Source: an uncultured Armatimonadetes bacterium (GTDB lineage Bacteria > Armatimonadota > Hebobacteria > Hebobacterales > Hebobacteraceae). Taken from it: a DNA stretch of 64,000 bases. This document shows positions 4,376 to 63,902 of this stretch, one piece after another. The position numbers and the translations under genes are program-made. Under the pieces are notes generated by a model. It saw only the letters and a list, made by a program, of their open reading frames with translations. It was not told the DNA's origin and ran no database searches. The DNA lies in NCBI GenBank assembly GCA_963699135.1, contig OY969415.1, positions 1,355,450-1,419,449 of the forward strand, in the 5' to 3' direction. How positions within the stretch are numbered: position 1 is the first letter of the stretch; each line of letters begins with the position of its first letter.

Positions 4376-6344
4376 TCAGTTGGCTCGTAACACCCGGTCT
4401 CCCGTCGGCCCAGGCCGGCTACTGCCGCGCCGTTTCCCGAGGGAGCCTAGTCGACTCACGTCCCTGCTTCGATGCTTGGCAGCATCGAACGTCTGGTTGC
4501 TGGCAAGAGGCAACGGGACCGGATCACCCATCCACACATAGCCATAGTCGTTGAGCAGGTCGAATGGGAAGGGTCGGGGCTGCGTCACATCGGACCGGTT
4601 CCGAAGCCCGATGCGCCACCAGATGAGGTTCGAGGCGGTGCCAGGAAGCTGCGCCTTGAACTCTTTCACCAGGTCGACGGTGAAGGTGTTCTTCCCCGGG
4701 ATCATGCCGGGCACGCGCTTCTCGAAGGTGCGATCTTTGGGGAAGGTTCTATCCGGATCGCGTGCCAACTGCACGATGGCCTCGTCGGCGCCGATTGGAT
4801 CGTAGAGAGAAAAGGTGGCGATATTGGTCGAGGAGACCGCAACGCTGACGGTCTTAGGCGGTGCGACGGCCGTCAGCTTCGCCGTCGGCGGCGAAAACTG
4901 AGTGTCGCGAGCCAGCCGCCACTCAGAGGCCCCGGTGGTCAGCTTGTACTGGAAAGCGACGACCGGCTTGATCTGGTAGTAGTAGGTAAACCCTGGTTGT
5001 AGCCCGCCGTCAAGGAAAGTCCACGTTATCGCCGTGTTCGAGACGACGATACCGAGCGTCCCAGTGCTCGTGGCTCTCGTGAAGGCGAACTGGGGGGAGG
5101 CTTCCGAGGGGTTCTCGATGGTGATGCCGACCGTGAACTGCACCGAGGGCGACATGTCGATGAAATGGTTCTGCGCCAGCAGCTCCATGCCCCCAATGAC
5201 GTTGGTCAGCTGACCGTTCCGGATCACCTCGTAGCCGGCCAGCCGGTTCTTCTCGGTGCCGCTGTATGGGATCCAACTGACGACGACCGCGGGCTGCGCC
5301 GGATCCGAGGAGGCGTATCTCGTGACGATACCGTTCGACAGGTTGCTCGCCTGGAAACCGGGGGCCGCGGTGTCGCCTTCCTTCAGGCCGCTGCTGGTCG
5401 AGGCCAGCTCGGCGACTCCCAGGATCGCGGCTGCGGTCAGGATCAGGTTGTGCGCGCTCTTCCGCTGGCGCTGCGTTCGCTGAGGAGTCGCGGCGGTCGT
5501 GCCGTTAGGGAGCTGGTAGACGGCCCTCAGATGGTCGCCCGTGCGAAGCGGCGGGCCCTGAACGATAGTGGCATAGGAGCCAATCGGGCTCGCCTCGGTG
5601 ATCTCGACCATGCCGATGCGCAGGTTGTCGCGCACCGCCACCATCTTCATGCCTGGCTCGACGCCGGCCCGGCCTCCCACATTGAGGAAGACCGTGGCGT
5701 CACGGGACCACAGCACCATCGCCGTGACCGTGGGCCGCGTCCTCATTTGCTGGACCGCGTCGAAGGCCGCCTGCTGCAAAGCCTTCGTAATCAGCGTATC
5801 ATCGCTCGCCTCGGTCGATGCGGGCCCGCGCGAGGTGATGAGGGCGCCGTTCGTCCCGGCCTGGGCGAGGCGATCGAAGAGCAGCACCGCCAGCGTCACT
5901 TCGCCGTAGCGGCCGTCCTTGCTCTGCACGACGCGCGCAACCCGCACCTGGCCCGTAACCGCCATATTCACTTCCAGCTCGGTGGCGAATCGCGCCAACT
6001 CCTGGTCGGAGAACGGAGGCTTGTATCCGAGGTTGCGAAGCCACATCTCGGAATCGGCCTTGGGGAGGACGTCGAGGTTGAGCCGGTCGCGCAACTCTGT
6101 CGATACCGCGTCGGCCGCCTCTTGCCCAAAGGTCTCCAGTCGGTATCCGCTTCTATTCTCGAACGGCACTACCGCGACAGACTGCGTGGCCGAGGGCCCG
6201 CGTTGACCCCATGCCTCCTGCGGTAGCGATCTGCGCACCTGCCGGTACCGCGCCCAGTGCTAGTAACGCCGCAGAGCAGAGGAAGGCCCCGGTCATGCCG
6301 GGCGCGATTGCTCGGGACACTGCCCCCAGTGAGAACATGCGCAT
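4376..6344 (-). CDS. Secreted/lipoprotein with a TolB-N/LpoB-like N-domain (VAVVPFENRSGY) and Ig/FN3-like C-terminal domains. A probable frameshift lies near 6200.
   Basis: The 620-aa ORF 4376-6238 has no signal peptide. The overlapping out-of-frame ORF 6153-6344 encodes a good signal peptide (MRMFSLGAVSRAIAPGMTGAFLCSAALLALGAVPAGA). I therefore infer a frameshift between the two. Confidence 0.45.
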
Positions 6345-13754: not shown

Positions 13755-13965
13755 CGGTTGACCTAGCCCCCTACGAAACGCGAGCTCCGACGTCTAGGTC
13801 TCAACGGCCAGCGGGGACACAAGAAGGGGAACCAAAACCGGCTCAACGGAGCGGCTGGATGGTGCAGCGATACTACTTCGAATCGGGCCGCAAAGCAAGC
13901 CCTGGGGGGTGAACGATGGCCTGGCCACAGACTGCCGGAGCAGCGGGAACAGCAGGAACAGCGGA

Positions 13966-14030
13966 GGGGCTTCGGCAGTAGAACTACCGAAGGAGCGTGA
14001 GGGAGGGGCTTCGGCAGTAGAACTACCGAA
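13966..14030. repeat. Two tandem copies of the hairpin unit GGGGCTTCGGCAGTAGAACTACCGAAG (internal GTAG)
   Basis: The copies lie at 13966-13992 and 14004-14030. Related units (..tagaactaccgaagcaacgg..) recur at about 19585. Confidence 0.8.
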
Positions 14031-14626
14031 GCAACGGGGAGCCGCGGAAATGCACGCATGAAAAGTGGCGTTTTCGCAGATGCGGCGCGATGTTCCACGT
14101 GGAACATTTCGGGGATTTCCGGGGTGTTCACATTGACGGAATCGGAGGGTCGGGTGGGAGGCGGGCGGGAGAGAGGGGGTGAGGGGGCGGAGGGTGGGAA
14201 TTGGCGTAAGTAAGCAAGGTATTGATAGTACAAGAGGCAAGCTGAAATGGAGTCGATTTCCGTACGCGGGGATTTCGCGATTTGCCCTAGAAGGCGGCTG
14301 GATGGGTCCAGGAGAGGGGCGCGAAATGCGTCTCTTTCGCGGGAACGCCGTATTATGAGCTTTTTCGGGGGAGGGCCGGACTATTTCACGTAGGGCAAGC
14401 CAGAGGGGTCAGAGGGGAAGATAGGGGCATTTCGGGGTCTGAGGGGAGGTGCGCGCAGGGGGGCATAGGAGTGCACGAGATGCGTGGTTCGCGGGGCGAG
14501 ATGTGCGTGTTTTCGGTGGCTTTGGGCCGTGCATTTCGGGGGTGGGAAGGGGGCGGAATCGGGGTGTACTAAGGGGTTAGTACAGTGGGTTTGGGCATAG
14601 GCATAAGTGGAGGGAACGGGAACAGC

Positions 14627-14690
14627 ACGGCAACGGCGGTAACCGCAGATTACGCAGATTGCGCAGATTGGCGCCCGCCGATGGCGGGCG
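14627..14690. repeat. Repeat unit acggcaacggcRgtaaccgcagattacgcagattgcgcagatt followed by a GC hairpin. A second copy lies at 17978-18041.
   Basis: The two copies match exactly or nearly so. Each contains a 3x gcagatt mini-repeat and a hairpin (cgcccgccGATggcgggcg, or ggcccgccTAACggcgggc in the second copy). Confidence 0.8.
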
Positions 14691-14768
14691 AAACGGCAAG
14701 GGCGCTCTTGGGGGGGCGGAGGTGGGGGACGCGGGATCGCCGCCCTCCCGGCGGCGGGCGGGCAGGGA

Positions 14769-16091
14769 GGGCGTGATTCATTGTAAAGTAGCAAGACCTC
14801 CTTGACAGTCGTCTAGCAGGACATGGTTGACACTTTTGATCTGGGTAGTCGCAGCGCCAGCGCGCTGGTATCGCGGGTGCGCAAGTCCAGCTCCCGGATC
14901 GCCATCGCCCGGTAGCTGACCACCACCAGGTGTTCCACCTCCTCCACGCACACCGGCTCGCCCGCCAGCGCCTCGCACACAAACCAGCGTCGGCCCCGCC
15001 ACTTCAGGCACCCCTGGCTGTTGAGACGTTGCACCACTCCGGTGTCATAGACCCAGGGCGCTGGCTGCTCCCGGTAGGGCCGGAGCTTCTGGAACGAGTA
15101 GACCTGGCTGGGACACCGCATCCCCAGCGCCTCGTGGGGACGCGCCTGGTTGTACTCCCGGCGGAACCGCGGCGCCCCTTGCCGCCAGCTCTCCAGGTCC
15201 GGCGGCAGCCCCTCATGCCAGGTGCGCGCTTTCAGGGTGCGGTGGAAGCGCTCCACCTTCCCCCGGGTCTGGGGGTGTGAGGGTCGGCCGTAGAGGAGCT
15301 CGATATCCTGGTTCAGCAGCCACACGCTCAGCCGGGTCAGCCCGTAACCGTTGGTGGTCGACCACCACGGCGCCCCCCGATCCATCAGCAGCGCCTCCGG
15401 CACTCCCGGCTCCCGAAAGAGCCCTCCCAGCGCCTCCTGGACCCCCTCCAGCGCGACGCTGGGCAAGGGCCAGCGCCCCACCAGATAGCGGGAGTGATCA
15501 TCGATCAGGCTCAGCGGGTAGCACCAGCCCTGCGCCAGCGCATACTCTCCCTTGAAGTCCATCTGGTGCAGCTGGTTGGGCGCCTCCCGCACAAACCGCC
15601 CCTGCGCCTGGCCCCGTACCGGCCCCGCCATCAGTCGCCCTTGCCGGCGCAGAATCCGGTTGATACTCCACTCCGCCAACGGCACCCCTTCGCGCGCCAG
15701 CAGCACCTGCAACTTCCGGGCTCCCCACCCATACGCCTCCCGCAACGCCACCACCCGCGCCTCCAGTGCCGCTGGGGTCTGCGTCGGCGAACGCCGGGGC
15801 CGGCGGGAGCGCTCCTGCAGCCCGCCGCAGGAGCCACCCTCCTCCAACCGTCTCCGCCAGCCGTAGCCGGTCTGCCGGGAGATCCCGTACTCCGCACACA
15901 ACTGCGCAAAGGGAGCCACCCGCTGCTTCGCCCGCACCAGGAACTCAATGCGTTGATCCATGACACGCGTATCCTTCCAGGGCATGGGCCTCACCTCGCT
16001 GCTAGCAGACCCTTCCGCCCTCCCAAGTGTCAAGGATGTCCTGCTATATCAGTGTCAAGGATCTCATGCTACCGTACAATGAATCACGCCC
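14769..16091 (-). mobile_element. IS481-family insertion sequence (about 1.3 kb) with roughly 55-bp imperfect terminal inverted repeats, inserted into a REP-like hairpin
   Basis: The left end is gggcgtgatTCATTGTAAAGTAGCAAGACCTCCTTGACAGTCGTCTAGCAGGACATGGTTGACAC. The reverse complement of the right end is ..GTGTCAAGGATGTCCTGCTATATCAGTGTCAAGGATCTCATGCTACCGTACAATGAatcacgccc. The flanking halves gggcgtgat / gaatcacgccc together reconstitute the hairpin that is seen intact at 29853-29872. Confidence 0.75.
14813..16033 (-). CDS. IS481-family transposase (DDE/rve integrase with an N-terminal HTH)
   Basis: Intact 406-aa ORF. It has an N-terminal HTH (FAQLCAEYGISRQTGYGWRRR) and a DDE integrase core (..HQMDFKGEY..LIDDHSRY..). 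It also carries the IS481-like C-terminus (FHRTLKARTWHEG..YNQARPHEALG). Confidence 0.8.
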   Translation of the reverse strand: MTLGRAEGSASSEVRPMPWKDTRVMDQRIEFLVRAKQRVAPFAQLCAEYGISRQTGYGWRRRLEEGGSCGGLQERSRRPRRSPTQTPAALEARVVALREAYGWGARKLQVLLAREGVPLAEWSINRILRRQGRLMAGPVRGQAQGRFVREAPNQLHQMDFKGEYALAQGWCYPLSLIDDHSRYLVGRWPLPSVALEGVQEALGGLFREPGVPEALLMDRGAPWWSTTNGYGLTRLSVWLLNQDIELLYGRPSHPQTRGKVERFHRTLKARTWHEGLPPDLESWRQGAPRFRREYNQARPHEALGMRCPSQVYSFQKLRPYREQPAPWVYDTGVVQRLNSQGCLKWRGRRWFVCEALAGEPVCVEEVEHLVVVSYRAMAIRELDLRTRDTSALALRLPRSKVSTMSC

Positions 16092-16210
16092 CTACGTACG
16101 GCGACGGAACAGGAACGACGAGATTGCCACGCGCGCCTCGGCTCCGGTTGGAGCCGAGGCGGCTCGCAATGACAGAGATGGGCGGCAACGGCCGCCCCTC
16201 GCACTGAGAG
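16092..16210. repeat. Composite repeat built from units gattgccacg-[hairpin]-ctcgcaatgaca. Variants recur at about 19627-19682, 25056-25110, 29906-29965 and 18048-18100.
   Basis: Contains cgacgagattgccacgcgcgcctcggctccggttggagccgaggcggctcgcaatgacagagatgggcggcaacggccgcccctcgcactgagagcgg. The inner hairpins GGCTCC-GGTT-GGAGCC and GGGGCGGC-AACG-GCCGCCCC are enclosed by ATTGC/GCAAT. Confidence 0.75.
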
Positions 16211-16215
16211 CGGAG

Positions 16216-17631: not shown

Positions 17632-17735
17632 GGGGGTCTCCTTGGCGCTGCGCGGGAGGTTCGCCGCGGGGAGGGCGGCTACCTAGTGGGGGGGCAACGG
17701 CAGGCCGGGCGCAGAGGGAAGACAACGGCTGGAGA

Positions 17736-17952
17736 TGACTGCCCGGCACGATTGTGCCGGGCAGGAGCCTGTTGGGGGACGACTGGCCGTTCGTCCCCCA
17801 AACCCCCTCACCGGCTTGTGGCGTCCTGACGAAAGCATGAGGTGGCAGCGAGGGGAGTGGGACGCCGCCCCTCGCAACGACAGCGGAGGAGGGAATGGCA
17901 GGACCAAGTCGCCGGAGGCGACCAAGGGTCCTGCCGAACGGGAACCTAGCCA
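17736..17952. repeat. About 215-bp composite repeat (copy 1 of 2; copy 2 at 29646-29847) made of several hairpin modules
   Basis: Modules: TGCCCGGCAC-GATT-GTGCCGGGCA, GGGGGACGA-ctggccg-TTCGTCCCCC and GGCAGGACC..AAGTCGCC-GGAG-GCGACT..GGTCCTGCC. The two copies are roughly 90% identical. Confidence 0.8.
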
Positions 17953-18178
17953 CCTGCGGCGGGAGAGTAACGGCGAAACGGCAACGGCAGTAACCGCAGA
18001 TTACGCAGATTGCGCAGATTAGGCCCGCCTAACGGCGGGCGGAGGGGTACGGTGAGATGGCCACGGGGCGGCAACGGCCGCCCGTCGCGATGCCACCCGC
18101 ACGCTGCGAGCGCGGGTGGCAGGCCGGGGTGATGGGTGTGGCGAAGACTGGGAGTATACCTTTGGGGACAGGGTGGCT

Positions 18179-19309: not shown

Positions 19310-19690
19310 GGGGAGGGAACGGCGTTCACCGCAGAGACGCAGAGGGCGCAGAGAACGGCAACGGCCTGCCCGCCAGTATCCTGGCGGGCAGAGCCCGCAA
19401 TTGGGGGCGACCGGCGATTCGCCCCCAAGCCCCCCACTCGCCTTTGGCGTTGCTGACAAGAGCGGAGGGTAGCAGCGAGAGAAGGTAGCAGAAGGCAAGT
19501 CACGGGAGGCGACGAGGGCTCCCGCCGAACGGGACCGCGGGGGCTTCGGCAGCCCCTAAGTCCGCCGTAGGCGGACCGGGGTGGCGGCACTTTGCCTAGC
19601 CATAGAACTACCGAAGCAACGGCAACGACGAGATTGCCACGGGGCAGCGGCAGGCCGCTGCCCCTCGCAATGACAGATAGGCGCGTTCAC
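19310..19690. repeat. Intergenic mosaic of hairpin repeats
   Basis: Contains CTGCCCGCCAG-tat-CCTGGCGGGCAG; GGGGGCGA-ccggcgat-TCGCCCCC (a compensatory variant of the 17775 module); GTCCGCC-GTAG-GCGGAC; and the unit gattgccacggggcagcggcaggccgctgcccctcgcaatgaca. Confidence 0.75.
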
Positions 19691-25039: not shown

Positions 25040-25150
25040 CAGAAACGGAGGGGGAGCACAACGGCGAGATTGCCACGGGGCGGCAACGGCCGCCCCTCGC
25101 AATGACAACTGGGGAAAGGCATGCCGGGGGCGTGCCTACGCGGGTTACCA
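25040..25150. repeat. Repeat units: gattgccacggggcggcaacggccgcccctcgcaatgacaactgggg, plus the hairpin GGCATGCC../GGCGTGCC-tacgcgggtt (related copy at 59825-59865)
   Basis: Direct sequence identity with the units at 16092-16210, 29906-29965 and 59825-59865. Confidence 0.75.
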
Positions 25151-29560: not shown

Positions 29561-29645
29561 AGATGGCGGCGGCTCAGGGGCTGCACTTGTAGAGCGGGCG
29601 GGGGAAACGGCACTCACCGCAGAGGGGGGCGGTACGGCTGGCACC

Positions 29646-29995
29646 CATTGCCCGGCACGATTGTGCCGGGCAGAAGCCTGCTGGGGGACGACTGGCCGTT
29701 CGTCCCCCAGACCCCCTCACCGGCTTCTGGCCTCCTGGCGGAAGTATGGGGTGGCAGCGGGAGCGATGAAGTAACGAGCGCAATGACAGTGAGGGGATGG
29801 CAGGACCAAGTCGCCGGAGGCGACTGGAGGTCCTGCCGAACGGGAGGAGGGAGGGCGTGATGAATCACGCCCCTACGGGAGGGGGTTCGGCAGCGAATTA
29901 CCGAAGCAGCCAACACCGAGATTGCCACGCACGCCCTGGCTCCGGTCGGAGCCAGGGCGGCTCGCAATGACAACTGGGGCGATGGGGAGAGTGCG
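29646..29995. repeat. Mosaic repeat block: copy 2 of the roughly 215-bp composite (29646-29847), an intact REP-like hairpin GGGCGTGAT-gaa-TCACGCCC-ctac (29853-29876), and gattgccacg..cgcaatgaca units (29906-29965)
   Basis: Direct identity with 17736-17952, with the IS flanks at 14769-14777 and 16081-16091, and with the unit at 16113-16160. Confidence 0.8.
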
Positions 29996-33210: not shown

Positions 33211-33991
33211 CTACTTCAGCCCGAAGAGTTTGGTGGCGTTGCCGCGGTTGACTCTCTCGCGGATCGCCGGGGAGGCGCCGACGGCGTCGAAGAGGGCGTC
33301 GTAGAACTTGAAGTAGGGCTGGAAGCCCTCGTTGTCTGTCTGAAGACACTGACGTCGCTGGCGAAGAGGAGCTTTGTTCAGGCTGGACTCGTCGAGGTTG
33401 CCGTTGGGGGCGAACATCTCTCGCCCACATCATGAGGGAGCGTTGGTAGGCGGTGCCGCCGCTGAGTTCGGCGTAGACGTTGGGCACGGACCACGTGATC
33501 TTCCAGGCTTCCTCCCACCAGGGGTTGCCGAAGTGGGCCATGAGGATCTTGAGGTCCGGGTGGCGGCGGCTCATGCAGTCGATGGCGGCCGGGGCGCATG
33601 AGGGTGATGTCGGTGTGGGCGGGCGGGCTCGAAGACGCCGATCCCCAGGTAGCCGGTGTGGAACATGGCGACTTTGCCCTTGGTCGGAGATGGCGGCGTA
33701 GAGCGGATCGTAGCGGGTGTCGCCGTAGGAGAACTGAGGGTCGATGAACTTGATGCCGGCGGCGCCGCCGTCGAGGATCTCGTTGATCTCCTTGACCGTG
33801 ATCTTGTCGATGTCGATCCAGGGAACGGGGATGATGAAGTCGGGCAGGGCCCGATAGGCCTCCATCGTCGGCTCGGGGTCCTGGATGAGGAGCACCCTTT
33901 CCACGCCCCGGTCGCGGCATTTCTTGACGTAATCCTGGGGCGATCCCTGGAGCTTCGAGAAGTCACCATGTACGTGCGCGTCGATTCGCAT
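33211..33991 (-). pseudogene. Amidohydrolase-2 family metal-dependent hydrolase (copy 1 of a tandem pair), with at least 3 frameshifts
   Basis: The N-terminus MRIDAHVHGDFSKLQGSPQDYVKKCRDRGVERVLLIQDPEPT..GIKFIDPQFSYGDTRYDPLYAAISDQG lies in ORF 32999-34102. The middle and C-terminal parts (KVAMFHTGYL.., PAAIDCMSRRHPDLKILMAHFGNPWWEEAWKITWSVPNVYAELSGGTAY.., ..NRGNATKLFGLK) lie in other frames. Confidence 0.6.
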
Positions 33992-34047
33992 TTCTGTCTC
34001 CCTGTATGAGTCACTAGGGGGCCCGAAGTGGGCCCGCGGCTTGTCGG

Positions 34048-34825
34048 TCAGGCGAGTCCGAACAGCTTGAGAGCAGTGCCCCGGTTGATCCGCTCCCGCC
34101 ACTCCGGCGAGGCGCCGATGGCATCGTAGACAGCGTCATAGAACTCGAAGTAATCCTCGAAGCCCTCGTGCTCCCTGAAGACGCTCATGTCGCTGGCGAA
34201 GAGGAGCTTCTTGAGGCTGTCCTCGTCGAGCACGCCATTGGGGGCGAAGGTCTCGGCCCACATGGAGATCGACCGCTTGTAGGCAGTGCCGCCGCTGAGC
34301 TCGGCGTAGACGTTGGGGACGGACCACATGATCTTCCAGGCCTCTTCCCACCAGGGGTTGCCGAAATGGGCCATGAGGATCCTGAGGTCGGGGTGACGGC
34401 GGCTCATGCAGTCGATGGCGGCGGGTCGCATGAGGGCGATATCGGTGGGGCGCGGCGGGCTCGGAGCGGCGGGCGAGGTAGCCGGTGTGGAACATGGCGA
34501 CTTTGCCCTTGGCGGAAATGGCGGCATAGAGTGGGTCGTAGCGCGTATCGCCATAGGAGAACTGGGGGTCGATGAACTTGATGCCGAGGGCGCCGGCGTC
34601 GATGATCTCGTTGATCTCGCGCACGGTGACCTTGTCGATGTCGACCCGCGGCACCGGGATGATGAAGTCGGGCAGGGCTTTGAAAGCGGCGAGGGTTGAG
34701 TCCGGCTCGGAGATCAGGACGACCTTCTCGATCCCCTGGGCGCGGCATTTCTTCACGTACTCCGCGGGCACGCCCTGGAACTTGCTGAAGTCGCCGTGAA
34801 TGTGGGCGTCGATACGCATATCCAT
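34048..34825 (-). CDS. Amidohydrolase-2 family metal-dependent hydrolase (copy 2, a paralog of 33211-33991), with 1-2 frameshifts near 34450-34500
   Basis: ORF 34136-34825 (MDMRIDAHIHGDFSKFQGVPAEYVKKCRAQGIEKVVLISEPDST..KGKVAMFHTGYLA) and ORF 34048-34554 (..ALMRPAAIDCMSRRHPDLRILMAHFGNPWWEEAWKIMWSVPNVYAELSGGTAYKRS..RINRGTALKLFGLA). It is roughly 80% identical to copy 1. Confidence 0.6.
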
Positions 34826-59789: not shown

Positions 59790-59870
59790 CGCAACTGGTT
59801 GAATCACGCCCCTACGTACGGAGGGAGAGGCACGCCGTGGGCGTGCCTACGCGGGTTGCGGCGGTGCCCG
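59790..59870. repeat. REP-like units: gaatcacgcccctacgtacgg (identical to the IS right flank at 16081-16101) and the hairpin GGCACGCC-GTG-GGCGTGCC-tacgcgggtt (copy of 25123-25150)
   Basis: Exact 21-nt match to 16081-16101, and near-identity to 25123-25150. Confidence 0.75.
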
Positions 59871-60401: not shown

Positions 60402-60645
60402 GAGGACGGAGTACTTACCCAACAGGCCTTTCAGTCTTTTTCTGGGCTTGGCCTTGGTGGGATCGGCTTACGGCCTACTGAAGCGCAGGAGATACGGGCT
60501 GTACCTGGCACAGGCACTGGCCACTTTCGCGGTCCTGACGGGAATCGCGGGGGCAGTGCTAGGGCATCTCATCAGCATCGTGAGCGCCTTCGCGGGGAGT
60601 TTGTGGCTGGCGTACTTCTACAAACGTCGCGACTGGTTCGCGTAG
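60402..60645 (+). CDS. Small hypothetical membrane protein
   Basis: Hydrophobic segments (FSLFLGLALVGSAYGLL; FAVLTGIAGAVLGHLISIVSAF). The track ORF starts earlier, at 60097, so the start is uncertain. Confidence 0.25.
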
Positions 60646-60700
60646 GGCATGGAGGGCGGGCGGTTGGCGGGGAGAGGGCGGCGCCAAGGAGCGAGGGCCA

Positions 60701-61000
60701 ATGGGTAGAGGCAAGTGGGCCCCGGTGACTCTCGGGCTCCTGACCTGCACGGCGCTCACAGTGGCATTCTTGTTGAACCAGCAAGCGAAGATTACTTCCA
60801 CGCAGGTAGAGTGGTTACTCGGGATATGGGCAGCCGCGCTCATCCCGTGCGCCGCGCTCGTGTTCCAGGCTGTGATGGGAAGACCCCGGGGTGCGAGGCT
60901 CCGGTGGGCGGTGTTCGTCGTGGTGGAGCTGGCGCTGGCCGTCTGCATCTGGCTCGCCGCGTGCTTCGTTCTGACCTGTCGCTTGCTACTCGCCGGCTGA
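60701..61000 (+). CDS. Small hypothetical membrane protein (3 TM)
   Basis: 99 aa with three hydrophobic helices. I recognise no family. Confidence 0.3.
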   Translation: MGRGKWAPVTLGLLTCTALTVAFLLNQQAKITSTQVEWLLGIWAAALIPCAALVFQAVMGRPRGARLRWAVFVVVELALAVCIWLAACFVLTCRLLLAG

Positions 61001-61147
61001 CCCGGACCTTAGGCAGTCAGATGCGGGGTTGCGTCGTCGGGTTGCTGCCGGAAGAAGGCGGGCAAGCCCCCACCCTATGTGAGGTTGGAGGATAGAGATA
61101 GATCCCCCCCACCCGGGGTGGGCGCAGGGCGGGAAGGGTGGCGTTAG

Positions 61148-61175
61148 CCCGTAGGGCAGGAGCTTGTCTCCTGCC
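61148..61175 (+). repeat. REP element, 5' copy flanking the RAYT gene: GTAG tetranucleotide plus hairpin GGCAGGAG-cttgt-CTCCTGCC
   Basis: cccGTAGggcaggagcttgtctcctgcc. The exact reverse complement occurs at 61690-61717. Confidence 0.8.
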
Positions 61176-61192
61176 ACTGAACCTGAGACGCT

Positions 61193-61675
61193 ATGCTCTA
61201 CCGAAGGCTTCCTCGGTTCGATCTGCCGAACGCAACGTACTTCATCACCTCCTGCACCGAAAGGCGCCGCAAGCTTCTCTCACGCCCTGACTTCACCGAT
61301 CTGTTGGTCAGCCTCTACGCGGACCTGCGCGATCGCGGTGACATCGCGCTCCATGGCTACGTCATCATGCCGGACCACTACCACGTCGTCTTCGCGCTCC
61401 GAGAGGAGAGGTTGGTGAGCATGGCGGTCCGGAAGGTTCACGGTCCCTTTGCGCGTCACTACCGCCGCGCGGTCGGCCCGACAGATCGGGTGTGGCAGCG
61501 ACGTTTCCGGGATCATGTGGTGCGGGACGATGCAGACTGGCGCACGAAGATGGAGTACCTTCACGCCAATCCGGTGCGGGCCGGATTGGTGGAGGATCCG
61601 ATCGAGTACCGGTGGTCGAGCGCGCGTTTCTGGCTGACTGGCACCGGGCCGGTGGCGTGCGACCCGGCGTGGTGA
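61193..61675 (+). CDS. REP-associated tyrosine transposase (RAYT), IS200/IS605-like TnpA
   Basis: 160 aa. The HuH motif is MPDHYHVV. The catalytic-Tyr region is near the C-terminus (IEYRWSSARF). The size and the flanking inverted REPs are typical of RAYTs. Confidence 0.75.
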   Translation: MLYRRLPRFDLPNATYFITSCTERRRKLLSRPDFTDLLVSLYADLRDRGDIALHGYVIMPDHYHVVFALREERLVSMAVRKVHGPFARHYRRAVGPTDRVWQRRFRDHVVRDDADWRTKMEYLHANPVRAGLVEDPIEYRWSSARFWLTGTGPVACDPAW

Positions 61676-61689
61676 GGGGAAGGAGGGAT

Positions 61690-61717
61690 GGCAGGAGACA
61701 AGCTCCTGCCCTACGGG
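61690..61717 (-). repeat. REP element, 3' copy flanking the RAYT gene (inverted relative to 61148-61175)
   Basis: ggcaggagacaagctcctgccctacggg is the exact reverse complement of 61148-61175. Confidence 0.8.
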
Positions 61718-61786
61718 CCTATGCGCAGGCCGCCATCCCGGCCGCCGATGGTGGCCTAGGGACTCCTGCCCAACGGGCTCACCCCC

Positions 61787-62032
61787 CTACGGCTTGCACA
61801 CCTTGCACGCCGTGTACCCCTTCTTGACGGCGTCCTGCCGGGTGATTTCGGTCTTCTTGCTCTTCTTGATGGTCCGGCAGGTGGTGCGGTGGTACTTCTT
61901 TCCGCTCTTGGTGATGTAGACGATGTCTTTGACGGGCTTGGTGGTGGGGCGCGGCGGGGCGGAGTGGCCGAGTGACGCAAAGGCGAGCATCGCGAGCATC
62001 ACCAGGACCAGGGCCAGTACTAGTTGCTTCAC
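61787..62032 (-). CDS. Small secreted Lys/Cys-rich protein (signal peptide plus a KKYH..C..C..CKVCKP motif)
   Basis: 81 aa. The signal is MKQLVLALVLVMLAMLAFASLG. The mature part has 4 Cys and is Lys-rich. Confidence 0.45.
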   Translation of the reverse strand: MKQLVLALVLVMLAMLAFASLGHSAPPRPTTKPVKDIVYITKSGKKYHRTTCRTIKKSKKTEITRQDAVKKGYTACKVCKP

Positions 62033-62050
62033 AGCCCCCTCTTTCCGAGG

Positions 62051-63040
62051 CGATTAGGCCTCCACGAAGTGCCCGAACCCTCTCAGCTTCTGGTATCTCG
62101 CGGCAACCAGCTCGTCGACGGGCAGGGCCCGCAGGCGCGCGAGGTTGCGGGTGATGGCTTCCTTGAGCGTCTGGGCAGCGGCCGCGGAGTCTTTGTGGGC
62201 GCCGCCGAGGGGTTCGGGGACGATCTCGTCGACCGCGCCGAGCGAGAGGGTCTGCTTCGCCGAGAGCCGCAGGGCTTCGGCCGCCTCGGGGCCGCGGCTC
62301 GGCGTCGCGGCCGAAGGCGTTGAGGATGACCGCGCACGACTCCGGCGGGATGACGGAGTAGATGGCGTGCTCCAGCATCATCACGTGGTCGCCCGACGGC
62401 GAGCCCGATGGCGCCGCCGCTGCCGCCCTCGCCGATGATGGTGACGACGATCGGGGTGCGGAGCGCGGACATCAGCATCCATGTTCTCGGCGATGGCGTT
62501 GGCGATGCCCCGCTCTTCCGCCTCCAGGCGCGACTCGGCCGCGGGGGTGTCCACGAAGCTGATCACGGGACAGCCGCATCTTCTCCGCCAGCTTCATCAC
62601 GCGGGCCGCCTTGCGGTAGCCCTCGGGCCGGGCGCTGCCGAAGTTGCGGAACTGCCGCTCCTTCACGTCCCGGCCCTTCTGGTGGCCGACGACCGCCACC
62701 GCGCTGCCCATCCAGCGGAGGCCAGTCCGGCCACGATCGCGGGGTCGTCGCCGAAGCGCCGGTCGCCGTGCAGCTCGACGAAGTCGCTCGAACATGGCGC
62801 CGATGTAGTCCAGCGTGTAGGGCCGGTCCTGGTGACGGGCGAGCAGCACGTTATCCCATGGCGGTTAGCATCGTGAAGACCTCACGCGTGACCTGCTCCT
62901 GCCGTGCGCTTGAGCGTCGTTCGACCTGCGCCTCGAGCCGAGCCCGCCGCTCGTCGCTGATGCTCGGCGGCGGTCAGCAGGCGCTCCATTTTCTGGATGT
63001 CCGCGTCCACCTCGCGCAATTGCCGGTCGAAGTGGAAGCC
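62051..63040 (-). pseudogene. accA: Acetyl-CoA carboxylase carboxyltransferase alpha subunit (AccA) with at least 3 frameshifts
   Basis: The fragments carry these motifs. ..FHFDRQLREVDADIQKMERLL.. and ..[17 protein letters not shown].. are one set. ..[38 protein letters not shown].. is another. ..[27 protein letters not shown].. and ..SALRTPIVVTIIGEGGSGGA..MMLEHAIYSVIPPESCAVIL.. follow. The C-terminus is ..GFGHFVEA*. They lie in several frames. Confidence 0.65.
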
Positions 63041-63042
63041 AC

Positions 63043-63902
63043 CTACCCATCGGCTCGTCCCTCCTCGTCGGCCTGCCGCTCGCCGTCGAGCGAGAGGATG
63101 CGGAGCAGACGGACCAGCAGCGGGCGCAACTCCTCGCGGTTGACGACGGTGTCGATCATCCCGTGCTGGTGCTGGAACTCGGTGGTGTGACTGCCGGGCG
63201 GCAGCTTGATCTTGAAGGCTTTCTCGATCACCCGGGGGCCGGCGAACCCGACCAGCGCGTTCTGCTCGGCGATCGTCACGTCGCCCAGGGAGGCGAAGCT
63301 GGCGAAGACGCCGGCGGTGAGGGGATCGGTGGCGACGATGAGGAACGGGATGCCCGCCTGGTGCAGGCGGCCGACGACGGCCGCGGTCTTCGCCATCTGC
63401 AGCAGCGAGACGATGCCCTCCTGCATGCGGGCGCCGCCGGAGCAGGCGAAGGTCAGCAGGGGCACGCCCCGCGCGATGGCGCGCTCGGCGGCGCGAGCGA
63501 ACTTCTCGCCCATCACCGCGCCCATGCTGCCGCCCAGGAAGCGGAAGTCCATGACCGCCAGCACCACGGGGAGGCCGTCGAGGGCGCAGTCTCCGCAGAC
63601 CAGCGAGTCGGAGAGGCCGCTGCGGCCCTCGTCGTCGGACAGCTTCTCGGGGTAGCCGGGGAAGTGCAGCGGGTCGCTCGACCTCAGTCCGCGGTCATGC
63701 TCCTGGAAAGTGCCGCTGTCGGCGGTGATGGCGATCCGCTCCCGCGCTGCAGGCGGCGGTGGTGGCCGCAGTGGCGGCAGACGTACAGATCCTCCTCCAG
63801 CTCCCGCTGGTAGAGCATCTCGCCGCACTTCTGGCACTTGGCCCAGAGTCCGTCGGGCACGCCATTGGGGAGCGGCGATCTGTTAGCGCGCTGTTCGCTC
63901 AA
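63043..63902 (-). CDS. accD: Acetyl-CoA carboxylase carboxyltransferase beta subunit (AccD) with one frameshift near 63800
   Basis: ORF 63684-63902 carries the N-terminal zinc ribbon (CQKCGEMLY..CRHCGHH). ORF 63043-63837 carries the CT domain (..MDFRFLGGSMGAVMGEKF..FACSGGARMQEGIVSLLQMAKT..GFAGPRVIEKA..). Confidence 0.75.

Follow-up and report, generated by a model that had tools for sequence, protein, structure and literature searches.

A predicted REP-associated tyrosine transposase gene between two perfectly inverted GTAG-tagged hairpins

Introduction

Repetitive extragenic palindromes (REPs) of the GTAG super-family are extragenic palindromes of 20–40 nt with an unpaired 5′ GT[AG]G tag, and a REP-associated tyrosine transposase (RAYT) is recognized by the position of its gene between cognate REPs. 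Nunvar 2010 puts the copy number of REPs usually above 100 per genome. The Escherichia coli enzyme TnpA_REP (Protein Data Bank entry 4ER8) has an active site made up of Y115, H59-M60-H61, N119, H123, and E161, and altering the GTAG or randomizing the stem abolishes cleavage or binding (PMC3479197). The signature Y-x-x-x-N-P marks class 2 Y1 proteins, and an Asp at the position of E. coli E100 has been reported for subclasses 2.5 and 2.7 (PMC6006769). The hosts named in surveys are Proteobacteria, Cyanobacteria, Chloroflexi, the PVC group, and a small number of other phyla, and Armatimonadota are not mentioned in them (PMC3733652, PMC6006769, PMC12306157). Here we ask how a locus at positions 61147–61718 of a 64-kb stretch of contig OY969415.1 (the whole analyzed stretch is called the window) compares with these systems. 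The locus is very probably a REP-RAYT-REP unit (the “REPtron” of Di Nocera), that is, the gene of a class-2 Y1 HUH endonuclease together with its two cognate REPs.

Results

The Transposase Gene and Its Flanking Hairpins

From left to right, the unit reads:

61147–61176, plus strand: left REP, GCCC-GTAG-GGCAGGAG-cttgt-CTCCTGCC-A, with GTAG on the outer side
61151–61154, 61155–61162, 61163–61167, and 61168–61175: parts of the left REP, namely GTAG, stem GGCAGGAG, loop CTTGT, and stem CTCCTGCC
61193–61675, plus strand: candidate RAYT (TnpA_REP) gene, 160 aa, ATG start, reading frame intact
61689–61718, minus strand: right REP, exact reverse complement of the left REP, with CTAC outermost
61690–61697, 61698–61702, 61703–61710, and 61711–61714: parts of the right REP, namely stem, loop ACAAG, stem, and CTAC

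The two REPs form a perfect inverted repeat of 30 nt (61147–61176 and 61689–61718, separated by 512 nt according to a repeat finder), with 16 nt between the left REP and the ATG and 13 nt between the RAYT stop codon and the right REP. An earlier, sequence-only reading had described the flanks as exact 28-nt reverse complements, each a GTAG beside an 8-bp-stem hairpin with a cttgt loop, around a 160-aa open reading frame (ORF) with the motifs MPDHYHVV and YRWSS. All of these features are present, and the repeat actually reaches 30 nt. The 28-mer, CCCGTAGGGCAGGAGCTTGTCTCCTGCC, occurs with 0 mismatches at 61148–61175 (plus strand) and 61690–61717 (minus strand), and no further site with up to three mismatches exists anywhere in the window; two or more matches were seen in 0 of 100 dinucleotide-preserving shuffles. 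Each arm has an 8-bp stem and a 5-nt loop, and the loops are also mutual reverse complements, so both arms are identical when each is read on its own strand. Folding as single-stranded DNA predicts a hairpin for both arms, with −11.3 kcal/mol and z = −3.0 for the left one. The elements between the ORFs have the form of a GTAG REP (an extragenic GTAG with an 8-bp stem and a 5-nt loop), and the inverted GTAG hairpins on both sides put the gene between cognate REPs, as in a RAYT locus.

In an Rfam scan, only a tRNA reached its gathering score. A subthreshold match to the Clostridiales-2 RNA (RF02937; 25.8 bits, with a gathering threshold of 58.6) at 61676–61755 extends over the right REP and the small hairpin that follows it, and probably arises by chance.

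What kind of enzyme would the gene encode? The sequence-only reading had called it a RAYT and proposed a comparison with profile hidden Markov models, which bears the name out. NCBIfam NF047646 (REP_Tyr_transpos, cutoff 80) matches protein residues 7–142 and profile positions 3–146 of 146 with 126.4 bits, and Pfam Y1_Tnp (PF01797) passes with 33.9 bits, whereas the IS200/IS605 transposase model NF033573 (cutoff 55) fails with 22 bits. No Pfam domain besides Y1_Tnp was found in the 160-aa protein. The only significant solved relative by sequence (phmmer against the Protein Data Bank) is E. coli TnpA_REP, 4ER8 (E = 4e-11). An AlphaFold2 model built on 48 homologs (pLDDT 93.9, pTM 0.88) leads to the same structure, with 4er8_A as the top Foldseek match (E = 4.4e-10, TM 0.75/0.73), whereas the TnpAs of IS200/IS605 elements reach only ∼0.53 with this predicted fold. 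The sequence and the modeled fold thus identify the ORF as a predicted REP-associated tyrosine transposase of the class-2 Y1 HUH endonucleases. A separate assembly, from run ERR15459707, contains an identical RAYT protein.

The HUH motif is H62-Y63-H64 and the tyrosine motif is Y122-x-x-x-N126-P127. In a pairwise alignment to E. coli TnpA_REP, H62/H64 correspond to H59/H61, Y122 to Y115, N126 to N119, and A130 to H123, while the counterparts of the E. coli GTAG contacts W94, Q95, E100, and R104 are W101, Q102, D107, and R111. The sole invariant columns in alignments of 35 and 48 homologs are P60, H62, H64, Y122, N126, and P127. Because Y122, in MEYLHANPV, aligns with Y115 of the E. coli enzyme and is invariant in the homologs, we assign the predicted catalytic tyrosine to it. 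Its earlier placement in YRWSS was wrong: Y139 of that motif gives way to W, C, or F in several members of the 35-homolog alignment.

Conservation of the Flanking REPs in Relatives

Is this paired arrangement peculiar to the window? Metagenome searches yielded 826 relatives of the RAYT at E ≤ 1e-3, with at least 546 confirmed loci. Percentages given below with individual relatives are RAYT amino acid identities to the window protein, and flanks were compared in homologs for which sequence on both sides was present. All such homologs with at least 48% identity have inverted GGCAGGAG hairpins on the two sides of the gene, with the tag outermost. The tag is GTAG in L117 (87%), L201 (84%), L118–L120 (60%), L122 (57%), L010 (56%; three REPs on one side of the RAYT and two on the other), and L125 (48%), GTTC in L121 (58%), and GTGG in L124 (49%); in all, the tags GTTC, GTTG, and GTGG are found on the GGCAGGAG stem in relatives. 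What had been described from the window as the canonical RAYT/REP arrangement is thus conserved in every relative of this group, and the symmetry of the flanks, which as a one-off would have spoken against that description, recurs there with the same geometry.

The stem is without any variation in the ≥48% clade, so no covariation is measurable; full replacement is seen only in L127 (40%), which keeps the GTAG and a hairpin whose stem is another one altogether (CCACGGTT/AACCGTGG). Homologs at 27–37% identity have GGGTGCCCCA-type terminal inverted repeats in place of REPs. When four or five homologous units are aligned, the REPs are invariant, the coding sequence has 75–88% nucleotide identity, the spacer is variable, and the sequence outside of the REP has fully diverged; the left REP is identical or near-identical in L117, L201, L202, and L123. 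Invariant REPs around a diverging gene are the pattern expected of a recognition site under selection, which suggests that the flanking REPs are such sites.

Two other features of RAYT flanks were noticed. In L118, as well as in L119 and L120, a 22-nt direct repeat, CTGACGGGGTTGAAAGGATGAG, stands on either side of the REP-RAYT-REP unit (∼4871–4892 and 5540–5565 in L118); target duplications are not expected of Y1 transposases. L056, a metagenome-assembled genome (MAG) of the Ignavibacteriaceae, has an E. coli-like RAYT at 1634–2041 that is 33% identical to the window protein, with REP doublets carrying the same GTAGGGCAGG foot on both sides.

The REP as a Multicopy Family in Other Genomes

We scanned species-representative genomes for the exact pattern GTAGGGCAGGAG-N3–7-CTCCTGCC and found at least 137 sites in at least 116 genome stretches, against an estimated chance expectation of ∼5. 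One 3.15-Mb Armatimonadota chromosome has at least 10 REP sites in seven separate 8-kb stretches; among the matches listed, multiple sites also occur in four other Armatimonadota MAGs, three Hebobacteria MAGs, Chloroflexota, two high-GC “Bacillota” MAGs, Zixibacteria, and Ignavibacteria. Closer relatives show the same. In L123 (77%; region 99–1073), the 1.1 kb upstream of the gene contains at least nine REPs identical to the window 28–30-mer, in an array that includes two ∼157-nt inverted REP doublets and, at 663–743, a 3′ fragment of a RAYT with a REP, and such identical REPs are also found upstream of the RAYT in L202 (21–100). The REP is a true multicopy family in these relatives.

Among the matches listed, the closest named genomes with both the RAYT clade and the REP are Armatimonadota MAGs, some of them of the class Hebobacteria. 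This makes plausible the proposal of the sequence-only reading that the host belongs to a nonproteobacterial lineage; the SLH and LptD-like genes on which that proposal leaned were not recovered, as neither domain was found among ten large ORFs scanned in a search that was not exhaustive. None of the 116 stretches listed matches the source genome, and L041, a MAG, is the only one syntenic with the window (35.6–39 kb, 55–75% amino acid identity).

REP-Like Copies and Other Repeats Inside the Window

Beside the two flanks of the RAYT, the window holds the following REP-like elements:

61763–61778, minus strand: partial third REP copy, right arm and tag (CTCCTGCC-CAAC-GGGC, tag GTTG), a direct repeat with a 1-mismatch match
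17889–17943, minus strand: GTTC-tagged long-loop REP-like element, TCCC-GTTC-GGCAGGACC-(22-nt loop with its own hairpin)-GGTCCTGCC-ATTCCCTC; fold −16.3 kcal/mol, z = −4.4
29791–29845, minus strand: second copy of the GTTC long-loop element, 91% identical to 17889–17943; fold −16.8 kcal/mol, z = −5.6
19480–19534, minus strand: degenerate third copy of the GTTC long-loop element, outer stem lost, CTCCCGCC-GAACGGGA end retained; folds no better than shuffles

The partial copy lies 60 nt beyond the same 16-mer of the right REP. The three long-loop copies and the right REP have in common an outer flank, GAGGGA(A)T-GGCAGGA, and an end, ...TCCTGCC-NNAC-GGG, and pairs of GGCAGGA...TCCTGCC number four in the window against 0.045 expected. 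The GTTC-tagged copies may have been made by the RAYT at 61193–61675. They may also belong to another RAYT, because changes to the GTAG or the stem abolish cleavage or binding by E. coli TnpA_REP, and, since the long-loop elements close a ∼250-nt composite repeat, they may have spread within that larger unit. The composite repeat is intergenic and present in three copies (17690–17945, 29600–29845, and 19330–19535), and it ends in the GTTC-tagged REP-like hairpin; two internal hairpins keep their pairing in the third copy through compensatory changes, and no Rfam match was found for the repeat.

Do the remaining hairpins of the window also belong to the REP? GTAG adjoins perfect hairpins at 4 of 168 flanks (84 hairpins with a stem ≥7 and a loop of 3–9), where ∼0.5 would be expected from 395 GTAG in 128,000 positions. 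Two of these four are the RAYT flanks, and the other GTAG-tagged hairpins have other stems. Treating all GTAG-plus-hairpin sites of the window as one family was rejected, as their stems differ (GGCAGGAG versus GGGCGTGAT, GCACGCC, CAGGGCGC, and AGCCGCGC). A REPIN, as defined by Bertels & Rainey, consists of two inverted REPs with a short spacer that are replicated as a unit and abundant; apart from the pair around the gene, the window has no inverted doublet of the cognate REP. Most of the remaining intergenic hairpins are unrelated families with different stems. The sequence-only reading had held that the RAYT would explain the REP-like repeats of the intergenic space, a claim that is at best partly true of this stretch: related copies exist, but in these 64 kb the cognate REP stands only at the flanks of the gene, and most hairpins belong to other families.

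Among these is a hairpin family with no GTAG tag (16125–16215, 17843–17888, 18058–18090, 19630–19675, 25068–25113, and 29925–29970), in which the flanks are conserved (ATTGCCACG ... CTCGCAATGACAG) and the stems are variable but compensated. Adjacent direct repeats of 115–300 nt at 33218–34805, spaced 828–837 nt apart and 75–89% identical, look like a tandem gene duplication.

Position and Possible Mobility of the Cassette

Does the cassette always occupy the same place? Homology between the window and L117 spans 61146 to 61718, from one outer REP end to the other. Beyond its right REP, L117 matches the opposite strand of the window at 14725–14180 (77.5%), 47 kb away, and L202 (75%) has the same alternative flank (window 14767–14713), whereas L201 has the left flank of the window itself, from 61069. 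Judged by these flanks, close relatives carry the cassette at two different loci, and the breaks fall at the REPs. This means either a move of the cassette as a whole or rearrangements bounded by REPs.

One explanation of this pattern is that the whole 572-nt REP-RAYT-REP cassette is still autonomous and moves as one piece, its identical ends being the trace of a recent transposition. It overlaps the explanation given at the outset and differs only in what gets mobilized. We consider it compatible with the data but rather unlikely. The limits of the homology to L117, the distant flanks of L117 and L202, the RAYT 3′ fragment with its REP upstream of the intact copy in L123, and the 100% identity of the two arms across 30 nt all speak for it. 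However, the window has a single RAYT and a single copy of the cassette, rearrangement or recombination between the REPs of both loci would look alike, and REP-associated RAYT groups are mostly single-copy and vertically inherited (PMC5581495). The arms are, moreover, equally invariant between genomes whose RAYTs differ by 13–25%; arm identity is therefore explained by selection and need not be recent. The REP foot and stem, GTAG-GGCAGGAG, is common to genomes of at least five phyla and to RAYTs only ∼33% identical to each other. In one reading, which is likewise unlikely in our judgment, the cassette of the Armatimonadota-like clade is still self-mobilizing, and the shared GTAG-GGCAGGAG would point to horizontal transfer on several occasions or to a single REP type having been kept over extremely long times. 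This would go against the current view, which holds REP/RAYT systems to be lineage-bound, inherited vertically, and mostly proteobacterial.

In the window, the alternative site is occupied by a different GTAG-tagged palindrome (GGGCGTGATTCA / TGAATCACGCCC-CTACG) with an IS481-family element in its loop. This insertion sequence (IS) lies at 14769–16091, has 67-nt imperfect inverted repeats, and encodes a 406-aa rve/HTH transposase on the minus strand (14813–16033); the arrangement is GGGCGTGATTCA, then the IS, then TGAATCACGCCCCTACG, and more copies of the palindrome lie at 29853–29876 and 59795–59820. Next to it, a 1-kb G-rich noncoding stretch (13755–14768) is 77% conserved with the flank of the RAYT unit in L117 (870–1421).

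On the other side of the cassette, accA and accD occupy 62050–63902 on the minus strand. At least four reading frames hold pieces of accA and two hold pieces of accD, with the zinc-ribbon N terminus of accD out of frame with the carboxyltransferase domain. These frameshifts are either assembly indel errors or pseudogenes.

Discussion

How would a REP-RAYT-REP unit of this kind work? If it acts like E. coli TnpA_REP, the enzyme would bind the REP hairpin in single-stranded DNA and read the bases of the 5′ GTAG tetranucleotide specifically. H62, H64, and N126 would coordinate a divalent metal, and Y122 would attack the phosphate beside the hairpin on the same strand, giving a 5′-phosphotyrosine link that is then rejoined. 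Such strand transfer could copy or move single REPs or inverted REP pairs from place to place in the genome. It is from the E. coli enzyme that we infer the catalytic activity of the RAYT, the position of cleavage, and its action at the present day.

Several observations weigh against the unit as we read it. Two metal ligands of the E. coli enzyme, H123 and E161, lack a clear counterpart, with Ala at position 130 and a shorter C-terminal tail. A scan for promoters and terminators returned nothing beyond chance and no sigma-70-like promoter. Within the 64 kb, the exact cognate REP is confined to the two RAYT flanks, and the related copies dispersed elsewhere carry a GTTC tag rather than GTAG, with a far longer loop. 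Finally, the assembly may contain indel errors, because the neighboring accA and accD are frameshifted, though the RAYT ORF is intact.

Part of this evidence would also fit a relic, in which the gene is inactive or exapted and the hairpins are only RNA or DNA structures (mRNA stabilizers or terminators) with no ongoing mobilization of REPs. A cognate REP that is not dispersed in 64 kb, dispersed relatives that are divergent or degenerate, and a left hairpin so close to the start codon (16 nt) that it could affect translation are what one might see in that case. We nevertheless regard a relic as improbable. An inactive gene is disfavored by the putative catalytic and DNA-contact residues, which are all intact in a full-length ORF, and the REPs are strongly conserved relative to the gene. 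Nor do the hairpins resemble terminators: there is no T-run after either REP, and the lone terminator-like site in 60600–62100, at 61837–61852, is a count at chance level.

That the locus is an IS of the IS200/IS605 family, a classical autonomous Y1 transposon, is very hard to credit, and we ruled it out: the Pfam family Y1_Tnp is common to both and the protein has a weak sequence and structure likeness to the ISDra2 and IS608 transposases, but its family-model scores and TM values favor a RAYT, its tyrosine motif (Y---NP) is that of class 2, there is no tnpB, and its ends are identical inverted hairpins on opposite strands, while those of IS200/IS605 elements are differing left and right subterminal hairpins on one strand.

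What does a REP-RAYT-REP unit at this place add? The unit is an ordinary example of a known RAYT/REP system, and standard annotation pipelines would already name the RAYT gene correctly. With it, an Armatimonadota-like lineage would join the documented hosts of GTAG-REP/RAYT systems, and the unit defines a compact REP type with a perfect 8-bp stem and the tag variants GTAG, GTGG, GTTC, and GTTG. An invariant REP beside a diverging enzyme makes a convenient substrate–enzyme pair for testing how tetranucleotide and stem are read, and a cassette at differing positions in close relatives bears on whether RAYTs are domesticated or still move with their REPs.

Comparison with Known Systems

E. coli TnpA_REP (RAYT, YafM; 4ER8; subclass 2.2 of Quentin, group 2 of Bertels) appears to share with the window protein the Y1 HUH fold (TM 0.75 for the predicted structure), the HUH histidines, the catalytic tyrosine on helix alpha-D, the Asn metal ligand, and the W, Q, and R residues that contact GTAG; inverted GTAG-tagged hairpins flank both genes (REP/BIME in E. 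coli). The two proteins are only 24–25% identical, however, and the window protein has Ala for H123, Asp for E100, and a shorter C-terminal tail without an obvious equivalent of E161. The REPs also differ. That of the window is short and perfectly paired, with no bulge; in E. coli the stem of the REP is long, and binding requires a mismatch in it.

Subclass 2.1 (TIRYT), whose members have long terminal inverted repeats, is approached by the distant homologs (27–37%) with their GGGTGCCCCA-type inverted repeats. The long C-terminal HTH extension of that subclass (PMC6006769) is absent from the window protein, whose gene is flanked by GTAG hairpins, and on these two grounds the assignment was rejected.

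With the REPtrons, or GTAG-REP super-family, of Di Nocera et al. 2013 (PMC3733652), the window shares a tyrosine transposase gene between GTAG stem-loops, which may be single or multiple. The tag variants of that super-family are GT[AG]G, and the GTTC and GTTG tags of the window and L121 fall outside this consensus. A literature search for the stem GGCAGGAG returned only unrelated eukaryotic primer matches.

Closest in their motifs are subclasses 2.5 (Bertels group 3; Pseudomonas/Xanthomonas) and 2.7 of Quentin et al. 2018, which have DH[LF]H, WQ, and YI[VI]ANP where the window protein has DHYH, WQ, and YLHANP. Their proteins are ∼151 aa long against 160 aa here, foot and stem together make 10–13 nt against 4 + 8 = 12, and Asp stands at the E100 position in both. 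The reported hosts of subclass 2.5 are mostly Xanthomonads and Pseudomonads and those of 2.7 are Cyanobacteria and a few other phyla, from which the host of the window would differ. Overall, by its motifs, protein length, and short REP, the window RAYT seems to resemble subclass 2.5 most.

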